From: Candidatus Poribacteria bacterium
Lineage (GTDB): Bacteria > Poribacteria > WGA-4E > PCPOR2b
DNA: 64,000 nucleotides
Reading direction: 5' to 3'
NCBI GenBank assembly: GCA_965208675.1
Contig: OZ242351.1
Coordinates: forward strand, 1,120,001 to 1,184,000
Every line of letters starts with the position of its first letter. Positions within the stretch are counted from its first letter, which is position 1. Under the pieces are notes generated by a model that worked only from the letters and a program-made list of their open reading frames with translations, was not told where the DNA came from and made no database searches. The position numbers were made by a program, and so were the translations under genes. This document shows positions 5,238-33,412 of this stretch, in pieces.

Positions 5238-6110
5238 CTAGTGTGCATTATACGCTGCCTCGAATTCAGCAGGTGTCCGATAGCCTAGCGCTGAATGAGG
5301 CCTTTTCTGATTATACACGACATCTAATACTAGACTAAGTTGGTTGTATGCATCCCGGAAATTCTGATACTCGGAGTCAACGATATACTCGTCTTTGATT
5401 CTGCCAATCGTACTCTCAACGTATGGATTCTGCCACGGTTTCCCACGGTCCGTCATGGAAATGCGGCACGCTATCGCTCTCAATTGCTGACAATACTTCT
5501 CAGCAATGTACTGTCCACCTCGGTCTGAATGATGGATTTGCGGACGATGCTGTCTTGCTAATGCTTTTCTCAAAGCCCCAGACAGCAGGTTAACTGACAT
5601 GTTTTTTGACAACTCCCAACCTCTTATGGTTCGAGTAAAAACATCAAACAATAATGCCAGATAAGCCATTTGACCACTAGCCAGTGGAACATAGGTGATA
5701 TCTGCACGCCAAATCTGGTCAGGATAAGTGACTGATAAATCTTTGAGCAAATTCGGATACGCATATCGTCCGGGTTGACTGTTGGTGGTGATAACCCGCT
5801 TTCGCCTAGGACGTACTTGAAGCCCTAGTGCGCCAACCAGACGTTGCACCCGTTTTCGGTTGACAACCAATCCTTGACGATGCAGTTCATTTGTGATTCT
5901 GCGATACCCATAGCGGTGATTTGATAAACGTATTTGCTCGATATGCCGGCAAAGCTGAGCATCACCATCGGCTTTGGAATCGTAATAGAAACTGCTTCGA
6001 GACAAACCTAGCACATTACACAGTAGGCTAATGGGAAATGCTTCGCTGCCGCGTTTCGCCAATTCCCGTTTCTGCTTTATCGAGAGTCGAAGTAACTCAA
6101 TACTTTTTTT
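5238..6110 (-). CDS. IS3 transposase OrfB (DDE), fused to OrfA by a -1 frameshift
   Basis: YGYRRI, WRADITY (D), HHSDRGGQY (D), NPYVES (E), RPHSALGYRTP. The A7 slippery run at 6104-6110 puts OrfA in frame with OrfB after a -1 shift (…KKSIELLRLSIKQKRELAKR…). Confidence 0.9.
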   Translation of the reverse strand, partial: KKSIELLRLSIKQKRELAKRGSEAFPISLLCNVLGLSRSSFYYDSKADGDAQLCRHIEQIRLSNHRYGYRRITNELHRQGLVVNRKRVQRLVGALGLQVRPRRKRVITTNSQPGRYAYPNLLKDLSVTYPDQIWRADITYVPLASGQMAYLALLFDVFTRTIRGWELSKNMSVNLLSGALRKALARQHRPQIHHSDRGGQYIAEKYCQQLRAIACRISMTDRGKPWQNPYVESTIGRIKDEYIVDSEYQNFRDAYNQLSLVLDVVYNQKRPHSALGYRTPAEFEAAYNAH

Positions 6111-28291: not shown

Positions 28292-29080
28292 TCACCCATG
28301 GACTGCGTCTGCAAATCTCTTCATCAACGAAATGGAGTTTTGCTGTTCAATGACGTTTCCTGTCACGATAAAGTCCGCCCCGGCGTTGACCTTTGCAACC
28401 GCCATCTCGGGCGTAGTGATTCCTCCACCCACTATGATAGGGATAGTGACATGTTTGCGAACTGCGCCGATTATTTCGTCGGGAACCGGTATTTTTGCAC
28501 CGCTGCCCGCCTCAAGGTAGATGAACTTCATACCGAGATACTCTGCGGCAAGCGCGTGCGCCCACGCAATGTCCAATTTATCACGCGGGAGCGGGGCGGT
28601 CCCGCTCATAACTTCAACCGAAGTAGCGGTACCACCGTCAATAAGCATATACCCTGTGGATATCGCCTCTATACCACAACGGTGAATCAATGGCGCCGCT
28701 TTAACCTGCTCGCCGATTAGAAAATTGGCATTCCGGCCGCTGATTAGGCTTAGATATAATATGGCATCGGCATGTTGGGATAGGTGCATAGAGTCCCCGG
28801 GGAACACAATGACCGGTAACGACGTCTCATCCCTCAAGGCCTTTGCAAACGGGTTGAGGTCATTTGTCAAGAGGCTGCTCCCCAGCAACAGTGCATCAAC
28901 TCCGGCTTCTTCCGCTTGATGCGCAGCATGAACGCAATCCGCGATGGAATGCCGATCCGGGTCTAAGAGTACGATGTAGCCTGCTCTGCATCTTGACAGG
29001 ACATTCCGTAGGTAATCTAAGGTTGAACCTGATTTCATGGGGTTAGGTGTTTGGAGATATGTTTTTTCAATTCTTCTCAC
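28292..29080 (-). CDS. Geranylgeranylglyceryl phosphate (GGGP) synthase, group II
   Basis: LLDPD, LLGSS, LPVIVFPG, ADAILYLSLISGRN..FLIGEQ, IYLEAGSGA, PIIVGGGI, GADFIVTGN: PcrB/GGGPS TIM barrel with group II signature; start uncertain. Confidence 0.92.
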   Translation of the reverse strand: MRRIEKTYLQTPNPMKSGSTLDYLRNVLSRCRAGYIVLLDPDRHSIADCVHAAHQAEEAGVDALLLGSSLLTNDLNPFAKALRDETSLPVIVFPGDSMHLSQHADAILYLSLISGRNANFLIGEQVKAAPLIHRCGIEAISTGYMLIDGGTATSVEVMSGTAPLPRDKLDIAWAHALAAEYLGMKFIYLEAGSGAKIPVPDEIIGAVRKHVTIPIIVGGGITTPEMAVAKVNAGADFIVTGNVIEQQNSISLMKRFADAVHG

Positions 29081-29116
29081 GCCGCCATTGAATCTGATGG
29101 AATTAGACCGATTGCG

Positions 29117-30310
29117 TCAGAGCCATCCAGAGAGTATGAGATGTCTCAATTCCAGTAGTAAGCGTGGTTGGTGCATCAATACCGTCTTAAAAATCTGCGT
29201 CATGTTGACCTTGTCAGGCGGCATCTTTGACACCACCTCTGCACACTTGTCAAAAAGGTCATCACTGAATTTGAGCACACCATCTCGTATTCGGCAGACG
29301 TGCTTGAAATTACTGCCAATTTCCTTATCCCACCGGTTTTGATATTCGCTCAAAATCTTTGCGGACACATCTCCAATCTGGATTGCATTGACCGCAGCCT
29401 CGGCGGCAAATTGTCCCGAATACATTGCGTTTGCGATTCCACCGCCAGAAATAGGATCGCTATGGTGCGCCGCATCGCCAATCAGAGCGATTCCGTCTCC
29501 GACAATCTTGGGCAGGCTATTGCCTACCGGCACACATCCGACGACCTGCGCAAGAATTTTTCCGTGTGGAAATTTTCGTTTGACGAATTCATTTAGATAG
29601 TCGATGGCGAGCTTCCCGCCCTTGCCTGAGATTGTCCCGCCAATTCCGATGCCGACATTCGCAATGTCATCTCCCTTGGGGAAAACCCAGGCATAGCCTC
29701 GCGGCGCAAGCTCCCGCCCAAGGTAAAAATCGCAGAAATCGGGGATAATGTCGATCTTAGAAATTAAGTATTGGGCGCAAATGTCCACGTCCCGTAAATC
29801 GTGTGTGCTATCTATGCCCGCCCATCGAGCTACCTGCGATTCAATTCCGTCGGCGGCGATCACGACCTTCGCCTTGCATGAGTAGTCACGTCCGAAATAA
29901 CGGAATTCCACCCCGTTGACGAAACCGTCATCTGACTTGGAAACGGTAGTCACCCTGGCTTTAACAATTATGTCGGCACCCGCGTCCGCCGCCATTTCCG
30001 CCAAGACACGATCGAAGACCTTGCGCTCTAAAACATAACCGGCGCCCGGAAAATGGATTGTGGCGGGGGTTTCGTTTGGAGAAAAGATTCGAGCACCGTT
30101 AATCTCGCGCGAAACCCACGCCGGATCGGGCTGCACAAACTCGCACAGCGACGCTGTGCCAATCCCCTCCGCTCAACGCACGGGCGCCCCGATTTCCTGA
30201 CGTTTTTCCAACAATAAGACACGCAATCCATTATCTGCGGCAACCTTTGCTGCTATTGCGCCTCCAGGACCGGCACCGACAACAATGACATCATAGTCCG
30301 AGTGAAACAT
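29117..30310 (-). CDS. Archaeal-type digeranylgeranylglycerophospholipid (geranylgeranyl) reductase, 397 aa, with an in-frame TGA at codon 46 (candidate selenocysteine)
   Basis: ORF-track pieces 30173-30418 and 29117-30136 are in the same frame, joined by TGA at 30173-30175: [17 protein letters not shown]...[16 protein letters not shown]...; [12 protein letters not shown] and DPISGGGI are intact; ATG overlaps the ferredoxin stop (TGATG). Confidence 0.88.
30137..30165 (-). promoter_or_regulatory. Candidate bacterial SECIS hairpin
   Basis: mRNA UGA-GCGGAGG-GGAUU-G-GCACAGC-[GUC]-GCUGUGC-G-AGUUU: 7-bp apical stem, G-first loop 20 nt after UGA, weak lower stem. Confidence 0.65.
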
Positions 30311-30528
30311 CAAAAAAGTCCCCGTCCTTCGTATGCCGGGTAATACACCTTGCCGTTTCGTTCTAATGCAAGCACGCCTACCGGGCAACCTTTGATGCAC
30401 CGCGCACAGTCGGTACACTTTGGCTGGTCAATTTTCAGGTAAATATCAACGAGATCAATGATGTTCTCAGGACAGACGGCAACACAAGCCCCGCAATAAC
30501 TACAAAGTTCTTCGTCTATAAGAATCAT
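30310..30528 (-). CDS. 2x[4Fe-4S] ferredoxin
   Basis: [12 protein letters not shown] and [12 protein letters not shown]; stop overlaps the reductase start. Confidence 0.92.
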
Positions 30529-30639
30529 CGCATGCCTTTCCCGCTTGAGAACGTAATTTCTTCAGCGTGAGTTTCCTAATATTTGGATTCATTTAACGTT
30601 TAATGGTCAACTACTTTTCTTATGCATTTGCTATCGAAG

Positions 30640-31461
30640 TTAATTTATCGCTTGAAGCTGCTGACGGCGGGCGTGTTCATACAGTATTATTCCAGCGGCG
30701 ACCGCAACGTTCAAAGAGGATTGGCCGGGCGCCATAGGAATCTTGACAAGGTTGGTGCAGCGCTGGAGAATTTCTCTCCTGATTCCTTCGTTTTCATTTC
30801 CCACCACAATCGCCACGGGCGTAGTAAGTTCCAGATCATACAGGCTTTTGTTTGCCTTAGCGGTGGCACCGAGAATCTCAAATCCCGCCGAAATCAACTC
30901 GCGGAAATAATCTTCCGGCGACTCGCAAAATGCCAGTGAAATGCGCCCAACAGCCCCTCTCGCCGCTCGAACACAGTTCTTATGGTAGGGGTTTGCACCT
31001 TCTCCGATGAATACGACGCATTCAACTGCCGCCGCTTCAGCCGTGCGCAGCACCATGCCAAGGTTATCCGGATTGGTGATGCTATCAGCGATTAGCAGCA
31101 TACTCTCCGCGGACAAGTGAAAATTTGAAACGTTCCGGTAATTCATCCAAACCGATGCAACCACGGCTGGAACCGGTCTCGTGCTAGTAATGGTCCCCAT
31201 TATTCCGGAGCTAAGCATAAATGGTGCGAAATTTGCTGCAACGGCATTTTTCAGTAATGCAACCCCTAGGTCATTCGCCAACAGGTCGGGAGTGTAGAGG
31301 ATTTTGTCAACCGGTAACTTGTCATGAACTGCACGATTAACGAGTGTAACGCCTTCAACCACAAATCTCGACGCCTTCAACCTCCCGTTTAGAGAGGTGA
31401 GTTTGCGAAAGTCAGTGATGATAGGATGCTTCTTATTGTGTATAACCGCTCGGTTCGCCAC
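30640..31461 (-). CDS. TrmH/SpoU-family RNA 2'-O-methyltransferase
   Basis: FVVEG, NPDNLGMVLRTA, VVGNENEGI, IPM...SLNVAVAAGIILYE. Confidence 0.92.
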   Translation of the reverse strand: MANRAVIHNKKHPIITDFRKLTSLNGRLKASRFVVEGVTLVNRAVHDKLPVDKILYTPDLLANDLGVALLKNAVAANFAPFMLSSGIMGTITSTRPVPAVVASVWMNYRNVSNFHLSAESMLLIADSITNPDNLGMVLRTAEAAAVECVVFIGEGANPYHKNCVRAARGAVGRISLAFCESPEDYFRELISAGFEILGATAKANKSLYDLELTTPVAIVVGNENEGIRREILQRCTNLVKIPMAPGQSSLNVAVAAGIILYEHARRQQLQAIN

Positions 31462-31467
31462 TTATGT

Positions 31468-32331
31468 CTATGGGGAAGATCCAAGGTAGATTGCCCCCAA
31501 TCCAATGAAAATGTCCCACTTCATCCATTTTTGAATCTTTGCGCTGTTGGCTTTAGAATCATTCCGCCAAAGCCGAAAGCCTAAATAGATTAAAACCAAA
31601 TCCACACCCACGATAACGGTTAAAAGATAATGCCACGAGTACCAATTCAGTAAATAAGGAATAGGACTGAACAGTATGACCGCGGTGATGAAGATGAGTG
31701 CAACCAGCACGGCAACTCGTTTTCCCCAAACAACCGGGATTGTACCTGCATCGTTCCGAACATCACCCTCCATATCCTCAATGTCTTTAATTATCTCTCT
31801 TGCGGTGGTAAACAGGAACGCAAATACCGCTGGAACGAACGTACCGTATACAGTCAGCACCGAGGTTCCTCCTACAATGAAAGTTAAACCTGTCAGTACC
31901 CCGACTAGGAGGTTACCGAATAATGGTGTCTGTTTCAAGCCGAACGCGTAAAAGCATAGACAACCGGACACGATGACGGTGATTACCGCTGTGGGCACGT
32001 TTACTGCAAATCCAAGCAATATTCCCAGTCCCATCAATATTATAGAAAACACCATGGCGCCCTGTCGGGAAATCCTTGCGGACGGAATCGGACGTCCGGG
32101 TTTGTTAATCCGATCTATCTCGTAGTCACAATAATCGTTGAGCGCATTTCCCGCCGATAGGAGGAGAAACGCCGAAATCGCTGCCAAAAACACATCGATA
32201 TTAGTAACAACGACCCATTCCCCCATTCCGACTGCAAACTTGGCTCCGAAATAGACGGAGCAAAAAGCGATCAATCCGTTTATTGGACGTGAAAGTTCAA
32301 GATAAGCTGAAGTCATACGGGTAACCGCCAA
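31468..32331 (-). CDS. Digeranylgeranylglyceryl phosphate (DGGGP) synthase-like UbiA prenyltransferase
   Basis: L-x-RP-x-N start, AGNALNDYCDYEIDRINKPGRPIPS, AREIIKDIEDMEGD...TIP motifs typical of the DGGGPS subfamily; multiple TM helices. Confidence 0.85.
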   Translation of the reverse strand: MAVTRMTSAYLELSRPINGLIAFCSVYFGAKFAVGMGEWVVVTNIDVFLAAISAFLLLSAGNALNDYCDYEIDRINKPGRPIPSARISRQGAMVFSIILMGLGILLGFAVNVPTAVITVIVSGCLCFYAFGLKQTPLFGNLLVGVLTGLTFIVGGTSVLTVYGTFVPAVFAFLFTTAREIIKDIEDMEGDVRNDAGTIPVVWGKRVAVLVALIFITAVILFSPIPYLLNWYSWHYLLTVIVGVDLVLIYLGFRLWRNDSKANSAKIQKWMKWDIFIGLGAIYLGSSP

Positions 32332-32344
32332 ATGCGTAGGGTTG

Positions 32345-33412
32345 TTACGCGTCGCGCCCTGGATATGTGATGCCGAATCTTGCGGAATAATACCAGCGTA
32401 TGAGAATTAGACTTCCTGCGAGTAAAATAAGATAAAATGGGACTAAAACACAAGCGATTAGTGAAAGAATGAGTATACCAGCCCGTGCCGCGAAGATAAT
32501 TACCCTTCGTTCTCTCCTGAAGTTCATATATATGAAAGGCGGTAAACAGAGTAATGCGGTAAACAATGGTATCATATCTCTGACCCGCCATGCGGCCAAA
32601 ATTGCGCCTACCAATAGCAACAAGCTCAACAAGCAGGATAGCTTGGCGCCTAATATTACGCCGGTGGTACGATCTCCGAATTCACTGTCGCCGTTCAAAT
32701 CTGGGAGCGTTGTGTTGACAAAGGCTGCCCCCACACACAAGGCATAAGGGATTATCCGCCGCAAGGCTTCGCTGTTAATCGGCGCTGCTATCGCCCAGCC
32801 GATTAAAAATGCGATGCCGCCATAGCCGACAGCGTTCGCTAAAAGGTCGAGGAAGGGTCGCCCTTTTAATCGAACTGGACGAACGGAATAAATCACGCCA
32901 AGTAAGATTGAAAGCCCAATTAGGACGAGATAACTCAGGTTGTTTCTAAACCATAAGCCTGCCCAGACCACGGCAGAAACCAGTAACATGCCGGCTTCCA
33001 ATACAAGCAGCCGTAATTTCACATGTCCCTGAGCAACGAGAAAGAGTTTGTTGTTTGCGGCGTCTGTTTCTTTGTCGCAGATTTGATTGATGATGTAAAT
33101 TGCCCCCATCAGCATAGAGTACAAACAGAGGGTACCCATCAACTCATGATTGGGACGAACCAATATATTAAATTTCGGTAGAAATGAGAGCTGTACTGCC
33201 CTCAATCCTTCGTATGTAGGATTTTCAGTCAATGCGCCATAATGGCCAAGCAACACAAGCGTCCAAACCGGCAACAGTAGTGTTGGACGAAGGACAATCA
33301 GATAATCCAAAAGATGCAACGCTTTTTGTGTCGCGGATTGCAGCTTGTTTTGAGTGAGTGAATTTCCCATTACAAATCCGACCGCGCCCGAGATGCCGCG
33401 TCTACAATACAT
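32345..33412 (-). CDS. Second UbiA-family prenyltransferase, substrate unknown
   Basis: YIINQICDKETDAANNK, YS..P.RLKGRP..D, TLPDLNGDSEFGDRT; multiple TM helices; start uncertain. Confidence 0.85.
   Translation of the reverse strand: MYCRRGISGAVGFVMGNSLTQNKLQSATQKALHLLDYLIVLRPTLLLPVWTLVLLGHYGALTENPTYEGLRAVQLSFLPKFNILVRPNHELMGTLCLYSMLMGAIYIINQICDKETDAANNKLFLVAQGHVKLRLLVLEAGMLLVSAVVWAGLWFRNNLSYLVLIGLSILLGVIYSVRPVRLKGRPFLDLLANAVGYGGIAFLIGWAIAAPINSEALRRIIPYALCVGAAFVNTTLPDLNGDSEFGDRTTGVILGAKLSCLLSLLLLVGAILAAWRVRDMIPLFTALLCLPPFIYMNFRRERRVIIFAARAGILILSLIACVLVPFYLILLAGSLILIRWYYSARFGITYPGRDA

Follow-up and report, generated by a model that had tools for sequence, protein, structure and literature searches.

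Within a 64,000-nucleotide stretch of the genome of a Candidatus Poribacteria bacterium (contig OZ242351.1, positions 1,120,001 to 1,184,000; hereafter the window), a gene of the geranylgeranyl reductase (GGR) family carries an in-frame UGA at codon 46, which is followed, inside the coding region, by a short RNA hairpin. This hairpin is very probably a working selenocysteine insertion sequence (SECIS) that directs selenocysteine (Sec) into the active site of the reductase. It folds into a compact stem-loop, is conserved and covaries among the orthologues that carry the UGA, and is absent from the Poribacteria orthologues that carry a cysteine codon instead; moreover, the genome encodes the complete Sec machinery and the UGA aligns with the active-site cysteine of known GGRs. 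From these observations we infer that SelB binds the hairpin and that Sec is inserted at the UGA.

Read as mRNA from the minus strand, the sequence in question is UGA GCGGAGG GGAUU G GCACAGC GUC GCUGUGC G AGUUU. When the T of the TGA (position 30175) is counted as 0, the two arms of a perfect 7-bp stem occupy +16 to +22 (GCACAGC) and +26 to +32 (GCUGUGC) and enclose a GUC loop at +23 to +25, with exactly 20 nt between the UGA and the loop. A G/G mismatch (+15 and +33) separates this stem from a putative lower helix formed by GGAUU (+10 to +14) and AGUUU (+34 to +38). A first-pass annotation, made from the letters of the window alone, had described the stem, the loop, the spacing and the mismatch in precisely these terms, and its reading is exact on the minus strand. 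The RNAfold analysis that it had proposed returned the same structure, lower stem included, as the minimum free energy (MFE) fold of 54 nt (-22.1 kcal/mol), while the segment +10 to +39 and the 21-nt core gave -15.3 and -11.5 kcal/mol, respectively. The z-score of the 54-nt fold is -2.08, and 7 of 200 shuffled sequences were equally stable. In this genome, a stem of at least 6 bp with a GTC loop at +20 to +26 follows 76 of the 174,382 TGA trinucleotides (4.4 per 10,000), and a looser hairpin with a G[G/U]N loop at +18 to +28 follows 794 of them (46 per 10,000); both rates are similar after eight other trinucleotides. The hairpin is therefore rare enough that its occurrence by chance at a given TGA is not expected.

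The bacterial SECIS (bSECIS) model, as presented in the main text of a May 2026 review (PMC13188914), comprises a loop of 3-9 nt on a stem of 4-16 bp, a G as the first or second base of the loop (in most cases G[G|U]), a distance of 16-37 nt between the UGA and the loop, and an MFE of -7.5 kcal/mol or lower. The element described here agrees with all four structural constraints (3-nt GUC loop, 7 bp, 20 nt and -15.3 kcal/mol) and, as in that model, it lies inside the open reading frame (ORF) just 3' of a UGA which aligns with Cys in homologues. It differs from the model as presented there in that its loop is of the minimum size, its stem is perfect and without a bulge, and no lower helix is conserved. 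In the Escherichia coli fdhF gene (NC_000913.3) the arrangement is UGA-N18-GGUC, with a GCA/UGC apical stem and the loop at +21, and the 17-nt hairpin GGUUGCAGGUCUGCACC starts at +14, compared with +16 for the hairpin of the same length in the window. The apex of fdhF, which had been quoted in the first-pass annotation as GCAG-GU-CUGC, is thus better written GCA-GGUC-UGC, with a 4-nt loop. Both elements consist of an apical hairpin with G-U in the loop at a nearly equal distance from the UGA (loop at +21 in fdhF and at +23 here). However, fdhF has a 4-nt loop on a 3-bp apical stem, a bulged U, three more pairs and a long lower helix, whereas the stem in the window is a continuous 7 bp. It is known that G23/U24 and the bulged U of fdhF have roles in SelB binding. 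The z-score of the fdhF element is 0.10, i.e. it is no more stable than shuffled sequences, in contrast to the value of -2.08 found here; since fdhF contains a proven SECIS, the thermodynamic z-score is a poor criterion for elements of this type.

The gene containing the UGA begins with an ATG at 30310, ends with a TGA at 29119-29117 and contains a single internal TGA (Table 1). The read-through protein scores well above the cut-offs of the Pfam family GGR_cat (90.6 bits; cut-off 27) and of TIGR02032 (236.6 bits; cut-off 158.8), matches the structure of the Thermoplasma acidophilum GGR (3oz2) over residues 5-392 with an E-value of 3.6e-79, and contains the GGR motifs GxGxxG (VGAGPGG), YxWxFP (GYAWVFP) and GGG (SGGGI). 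Codon 46 aligns with Cys45 of chain 3oz2_A, which lies within the sequence PVRCGEG. According to the section cited, Cys45 of the T. acidophilum enzyme and Cys47 of that of Sulfolobus acidocaldarius (3ATQ/3ATR) are the active-site cysteines located behind the flavin (PMC6309074), and a further report describes this residue, in the part referred to here, as essential in S. acidocaldarius GGR, although its role is still speculative (PMC10821996). In the Poribacteria gene, the position of this conserved residue is occupied by a UGA, presumably encoding Sec, which is chemically analogous to Cys. The protein therefore resembles the archaeal GGRs in its full-length match to 3oz2 and in its motifs, but differs from them in the codon at the active site, in its bacterial host, and in its scores below the archaeal equivalog cut-offs for digeranylgeranylglycerophospholipid reductases. 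Its best full-length NCBIfam match is the Thermoplasmatales model for that enzyme, NF041160 (300.6 bits; equivalog cut-off 780), and the scores for NF041080 (179; cut-off 580) and NF041385 (101.8; cut-off 700) are also too low, so the substrate can be assigned from the gene neighbourhood only.

One alternative is that the TGA is a real stop codon, the gene being split or a pseudogene whose product starts downstream, with an incidental hairpin. Under the standard code the ORF spans 29117-30136 (339 aa, from a GTG at 30136), and this is exactly the truncated product predicted by gene callers. Among the relatives listed with at least 69% identity, most database entries are of similar length (283-346 aa, except for P0038 with 398 aa); none of them covers more than 86% of the read-through protein, and all lack the N-terminus that binds flavin adenine dinucleotide (FAD). 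The public names of relatives are "NAD(P)/FAD-dependent oxidoreductase", "geranylgeranyl reductase family protein" and "digeranylgeranylglycerophospholipid reductase". However, the truncated product would have neither the FAD-binding fold with its GxGxxG motif nor the active-site residue. Moreover, the ratio of non-synonymous to synonymous substitution rates (dN/dS) is 0.046 for the 44 codons that precede the TGA and 0.05 for those that follow it, as calculated from the 246 and 97 of 528 pairs, respectively, for which a ratio could be obtained; this indicates that purifying selection is equally strong on both sides. As the TGA is also retained at one and the same codon in all 40 orthologues compared, and the hairpin covaries, we consider a genuine stop to be extremely improbable.

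The distribution of the UGA and the hairpin was followed by six-frame searches of relatives and by a codon-level comparison of the region around codon 46, the latter covering the orthologues other than those in G033 (gene split, with extra stops) and G008 (contig ending before the site). The gene was matched in 56 of 176 genomes of the phylum, and all 29 full-length orthologues found among 60 relatives contain exactly one TGA. At codon level, the TGA lies within the motif PVR*AEG in 40 of 40 orthologues, which represent four families of one Poribacteria order and have identities down to 69%. The 13 orthologues from other Poribacteria orders or classes all have TGT or TGC at codon 46, and some of them are close to the TGA form (60-68% identity). 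A Cys codon was also found in each of the 57 motif-matched homologues from outside the phylum (Chloroflexota, Ignavibacteria, ANME-1, Methanosarcinales, Methanobacteria, Methanomassiliicoccales and others), two further homologues of the 59 having no match to the motif.

The hairpin follows the same division. It is present in register in all 40 TGA orthologues (7 of 7 pairs in 32 of them and 6 of 7 in eight, one of these due to an N), always with 20 nt between the UGA and the loop, whereas none of the 13 Poribacteria Cys orthologues has kept it (1-4 of 7 pairs). In a 90-nt context, the median pair probability of the stem is 0.97 in 38 TGA genes, 35 of which reach at least 0.5, compared with 0.0 in all 13 Cys genes. 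The loops of the TGA orthologues read GUC (13), GGC (16) or GGA (11), so that they invariably begin with G, followed by U in 13 orthologues and by another G in the remaining 27. The MFE of +10 to +39 is -7.5 kcal/mol or lower in 36 of the 40; counted outside this limit were L041 (-6.9; contains an N), L042 (-7.1), L053 (-7.4) and L044 (exactly -7.5). The absence of the hairpin in Cys orthologues, which had been named as a check on the original proposal, is thus seen in all 13 of those from the phylum.

Covariation was analysed in 37 distinct sequences of TGA orthologues. In the upper stem, 97.3% of the cells are paired, and double compensatory changes occur in three of the seven pairs, as had been anticipated if the hairpin is a SECIS. 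For the upper and lower stems together, 26 cells show double changes, compared with 9.2 +/- 2.8 after shuffling of columns, and the covariation score was not reached by any of 500 shuffles; sliding of the 3' partner by 1-3 columns reduces pairing from 88.7% in register to 25-56%. The signal does not extend to the lower stem. Although GGAUU/AGUUU is part of the MFE fold of the window, as originally described, only 76.8% of its cells pair across the 37 sequences and no compensatory change was found among them. About half of the sequences lack pairing at two of its five positions, namely columns 24-50 (19 sequences) and 27-47 (20 sequences), and the lower stem was therefore rejected as a conserved part of the element.

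In a tree of 48 genes, constructed after removal of the hairpin columns (L066, L069, L072, L073 and L074 being too short for inclusion), the TGA genes form one clade with a Shimodaira-Hasegawa-like approximate likelihood ratio (SH-aLRT) support of 98, which means that the replacement of Cys by Sec was a single change. Within this clade the stem has changed repeatedly: pair 18-30 at least four times, pair 17-31 five times and pair 22-26 six times. At pair 18-30, G-C replaced A-U in at least three lineages, at the cost of coupled non-synonymous substitutions in which Thr (ACA) became Ala (GCA) and Cys (TGC) became either His (CAC) or Arg (CGC). Such coupled amino acid changes are hard to explain by constraint on the protein. 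Furthermore, the entropy of third codon positions, calculated from 33 of the 40 genes (those free of N and indels and not partial), is lowest over the six codons of the hairpin (0.54 bits, compared with a gene mean of 1.40), which rank first of 385 six-codon windows, and the G of the loop, itself a third codon position, is invariant.

The genome, which is represented by one contig of 4.89 Mb, contains all components needed for the decoding of UGA as Sec. The genes selA (595.6 bits), selB (C1:2131577-2133469; 367.5 bits, with 1-580 of the 581 model positions covered) and that for tRNA-Sec (77.5 bits) are mutually adjacent, and selD (375.8 bits) has one in-frame TGA of its own; all four score above curated cut-offs. 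No tRNA is encoded in the 64-kb window, the tRNA-Sec gene being located elsewhere in the genome. An open frame under the assumption that TGA encodes a residue would also be expected if this codon had been reassigned to an amino acid throughout the genome (genetic codes 4 or 25), so that no special element was needed. However, TGA terminates 677 of 2005 frames of at least 300 codons, as well as the GGR gene itself and the ferredoxin gene upstream of it, and in-frame TGA codons at Cys-like redox positions occur in few genes. Stop-codon usage therefore already refutes genome-wide reassignment, which we regard as practically without likelihood.

A genome-wide scan for TGA codons within coding sequences, in which a hairpin was required, yielded 81 candidates. 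This requirement means that the scan cannot measure how universal the hairpin design is, nor count selenoprotein genes that have no hairpin. Twenty of the candidates, selected visually because they had redox-like motifs or long frames, were compared with Pfam, and in five a domain spans the in-frame TGA: an FdhA-like molybdopterin oxidoreductase (L161; 8-bp stem, GUC loop starting at +22), an AhpC/TSA protein (L159; 6 bp, GUC, +24), an HMA metal-binding protein (L162; 7 bp, GUC, +26), a redoxin (L165; 7 bp, GGU, +20) and a DUF3179 protein (L160; 7 bp, CGUGU, +23). The corresponding values are 6 bp, GGG and +20 for selD, and 7 bp, GUC and +23 for GGR. Like the GGR element, the hairpins of L161, L159, L162, L165 and selD have uninterrupted stems of 6-8 bp and 3-nt loops (GUC, GGU or GGG) that start 20-26 nt from the U of the UGA, and in three of them the loop is the identical GUC. 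They differ from it in their unrelated stem sequences, and GGR differs from the products of these genes in being a flavoenzyme of isoprenoid lipids and not a thiol oxidoreductase or a formate dehydrogenase. The GGR element therefore shares its design with elements that are presumably already recognized by the cognate SelB.

It could also be argued that the hairpin is kept for mRNA stability, ribosomal pausing or the binding of a regulatory protein, and that the UGA is decoded by ordinary read-through or near-cognate suppression, e.g. as Trp or Cys. Covariation proves that an RNA structure is under selection but not what binds it, and the z-score of the fold is modest. On the other hand, the hairpin fits the bSECIS model in its size, loop sequence and spacing, and it matches the hairpins found after in-frame TGA codons in the FdhA-like, peroxiredoxin-like, HMA and selD genes. 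In addition, the hairpin appears only together with the TGA, at the site of a redox-active Cys, which is a typical position of Cys/Sec exchange, in a genome with the complete Sec machinery. A role independent of SelB is thus very unlikely, if less remote than a true stop codon. The proposal of the first-pass annotation, that the element is SECIS-like and favours Sec over a nonsense mutation, is well supported by the conservation of the hairpin, its covariation, the full Sec machinery and the agreement with the bSECIS consensus.

Several observations nevertheless weigh against a SECIS in the GGR gene. First, the contrast between TGA with a hairpin and Cys without one represents one phylogenetic event; for this reason, the independent support comes from the changes within the TGA clade. 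Secondly, the stem of L042-L044, which come from three genomes of a single genus, contains a C/C mismatch, which lies below the closing pair and is required if the loop is to begin with G, and its predicted probability in the 90-nt context is 0.0. This value is due to upstream sequence competing for the 5' arm, and a ribosome positioned on the UGA would presumably have melted such a competitor. Thirdly, the Cys homologues L143 and L153, of archaeal origin, form 6 of 7 pairs in the same register, which means that a hairpin is possible at this place without Sec; RNAfold predicts for both a longer hairpin in a shifted register. A fourth point concerns the integrity of some gene copies: the TGA orthologue L069 (G135) has, besides the TGA, an in-frame TAG where the motif AAWVS has its Trp codon, and the copy at G033:C2:1265194-1266383 is broken, being split and interrupted by extra stops. 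Both are possibly decaying copies or assembly errors. Moreover, many pairwise dS values are saturated, so that the dN/dS ratios are derived from a subset of pairs.

The remaining points of this kind relate to the fold in the window itself. The 3' arm of the stem can pair downstream instead (GCUGUGCG/UGUGCAGC, offsets 26-33 with 38-45), and the mean pair probability of the SECIS stem in the 90-nt context is 0.76, compared with the orthologue median of 0.97. In this genome only, positions 30130-30149 (minus strand, +26 to +45) contain GUGCAG in place of the AUUCAG of most orthologues, and it is this substitution that creates the competing 8-bp helix. Finally, when 30000-30320 was compared with Rfam by cmscan at an E-value limit of 10, the sole match was to an unrelated sRNA model (E = 7.6), located away from the hairpin. 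Bacterial SECIS elements are short and diverse, and this miss therefore says little.

If the hairpin acts as a SECIS, the following sequence of events can be proposed. As the ribosome nears the UGA at codon 46, the 17-nt stem-loop (7 bp with a G-U-C loop) would form 13 nt downstream of it. SelB, carrying GTP and Sec-tRNA(Sec), would bind the apical loop through its C-terminal domain and deliver Sec-tRNA to the A site, as a result of which the UGA would be read as Sec and not as a stop. The product would be a full-length FAD enzyme in which Sec replaces the conserved active-site cysteine of the archaeal proteins (Cys45 in T. acidophilum and Cys47 in S. acidocaldarius). This enzyme would probably be reduced by the ferredoxin encoded upstream, and would probably saturate the isoprenoid chains supplied by the products of the neighbouring genes for geranylgeranylglyceryl phosphate (GGGP) synthase and UbiA-family prenyltransferases.

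Table 1. Features of the GGR gene and its surroundings (positions refer to the window)
Feature	Position	Strand	Evidence or remark
GGR family gene, 397 codons + TGA stop	29117..30310	minus	Pfam GGR_cat, TIGR02032, 3oz2
In-frame UGA, proposed Sec codon (codon 46 of the GGR gene)	30175-30173	minus	at active-site Cys position
Probable SECIS core: 7-bp stem 30159-30153 / 30149-30143 with apical GUC loop 30152-30150	30143..30159	minus	fold, orthologue pairing, bSECIS fit
Putative lower stem GGAUU 30165-30161 / AGUUU 30141-30137 around G/G mismatch	30137..30165	minus	MFE fold only, without conservation support
2x[4Fe-4S] ferredoxin gene, TGA stop overlapping the GGR ATG by one base	30310..30528	minus	upstream of GGR
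PcrB-family GGGP synthase gene	28292..29080	minus	directly downstream of GGR
UbiA-family prenyltransferase gene, most like digeranylgeranylglyceryl phosphate synthases	31468..32331	minus	Pfam UbiA 146.9 bits
Second UbiA-family prenyltransferase gene	32345..33412	minus	Pfam UbiA 67.9 bits

The genes surrounding GGR (28292-33412, minus strand) are arranged in the order two UbiA-family prenyltransferases, SpoU methyltransferase, ferredoxin, GGR and GGGP synthase, and together they constitute a set for isoprenoid ether lipids of archaeal type within a bacterial genome. The GGGP synthase is recognized by Pfam PcrB (144 bits) and scores above the cut-offs of NF003198 (274.3 bits; cut-off 247) and TIGR01769 (206.6 bits; cut-off 161.55), while the best NCBIfam matches of the first UbiA protein, NF009523 (237 bits) and NF009521 (224 bits), are both below their equivalog cut-offs. 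The set is flanked by ordinary bacterial genes, with hrcA-grpE-dnaK-dnaJ on one side and lpxD, skp-like and bamA-like genes on the other (named by eye from translations). The GGR gene is patchily distributed in the phylum (1 of 20 genomes in one genus, g5, and 16 of 112 in one family, f2), a pattern that points to repeated loss, or to transfer, of the lipid gene set. The genome of the window, which is 96.4% complete, yielded no match to CarS (PF01864). Five matches to Fe-ADH_2 (PF13685) were obtained, but this family also matches 13 of 14 control genomes and is therefore uninformative with respect to a glycerol-1-phosphate dehydrogenase.

More distant relatives from the Poribacteria (about 50-55% identity; P0072-P0121 among those listed, and also G061 and G062) are fusions of a Fer4 domain with GGR, approximately 460-510 aa in length, with Cys at the active site. 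These fusions support the view that, where the two proteins are separate, ferredoxin is the physiological electron donor of GGR. The GGR of Methanosarcina acetivorans, which likewise has a ferredoxin gene as a neighbour, needs the ferredoxin of its own locus according to the part of the report cited (PMC10821996). It is therefore likely that the adjacent ferredoxin is the electron donor of the Poribacteria enzyme. Judging from the neighbourhood only, the most likely role of this GGR is the ferredoxin-driven saturation of ether-lipid isoprenoid chains.

Three further types of TGA-containing frame were encountered in the genome. Of the 20 candidates compared with Pfam, 13 have no domain spanning the TGA: 12 gave no Pfam match at all, and in one (L169) domains were found on either side only. 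With the exception of L169 and four paralogues described below, these are probably not selenoproteins. The four paralogues (L155-L158; G000:C1:903626-904942, 2541039-2542193, 2542694-2544229 and 3422138-3423814, all outside the window) have the in-frame TGA in a conserved motif, DESC-U-[AG]xGK, with similar protein sequence on both sides of the TGA and a 6-7 bp hairpin, with a GGUC or AGUU loop, 26-27 nt downstream. None of the four has a Pfam match, and the two compared with NCBIfam (L156 and L157) gave no match there; they may constitute an undescribed family of CU-motif selenoproteins. In L169 (G000:C1:408758-411196), an FG-GAP / ASPIC-UnbV protein, the TGA lies between the domains and is followed by a 6-bp hairpin with a GUG loop at +24; this codon could represent Sec, read-through or a broken gene. 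The third type is a repeated frame, one copy of which is located in the window at about position 5889 (minus strand; genome C1:1125889) and in which a TGA is followed by the hairpin TTGGTT-GTC-AACCGA. At least six identical copies exist, the others being found at 1035271, 2940310, 3606312, 3882484 and 3942228, with 24 open codons before the TGA and 26 after it, and they probably belong to a multi-copy mobile or repeated element.

The SECIS itself is canonical, but the selenoprotein family that it serves appears to be undescribed. The main text of the review cited above, which counts 119 prokaryotic selenoprotein families, contains none of the terms "geranyl", "prenyl", "lipid", "TIGR02032" and "Poribacteria", although the family could be present in its supplementary tables (PMC13188914). 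The deep-Sep study lists, in the portion considered here, a different FAD oxidoreductase (PMC12013277). Combinations of selenocysteine or selenoprotein with geranylgeranyl (reductase) retrieved nothing relevant among the top full-text literature matches, supplementary tables aside.

A gene that is publicly annotated as an N-terminally truncated oxidoreductase is therefore most likely a full-length selenoprotein, through which the selenoprotein families would gain a flavin-dependent isoprenoid reductase. The existence of a natural Sec variant together with close Cys orthologues (60-68% identity) makes the role of the GGR cysteine directly testable, and the occurrence of an archaeal-type ether-lipid gene set (GGGP synthase, two UbiA proteins and ferredoxin) in a bacterium bears on the "lipid divide". 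A further-reaching proposal, which we put forward tentatively and regard as rather more doubtful than probable, is that one Poribacteria order turned the active-site Cys of GGR into Sec in a way that implies a direct chemical role of this residue and a selenium-dependent supply of saturated archaeal-type ether lipids. If this is true, the residue would act as a proton donor or as a redox partner of the flavin in double-bond reduction, and not only in tuning of the flavin, and these bacteria would depend on selenium for the synthesis of saturated isoprenoid ether lipids of archaeal type. The Poribacteria GGR would then be the first selenoenzyme of membrane-lipid biosynthesis, and would provide a natural Cys/Sec pair for dissecting the mechanism of this family of reductases.

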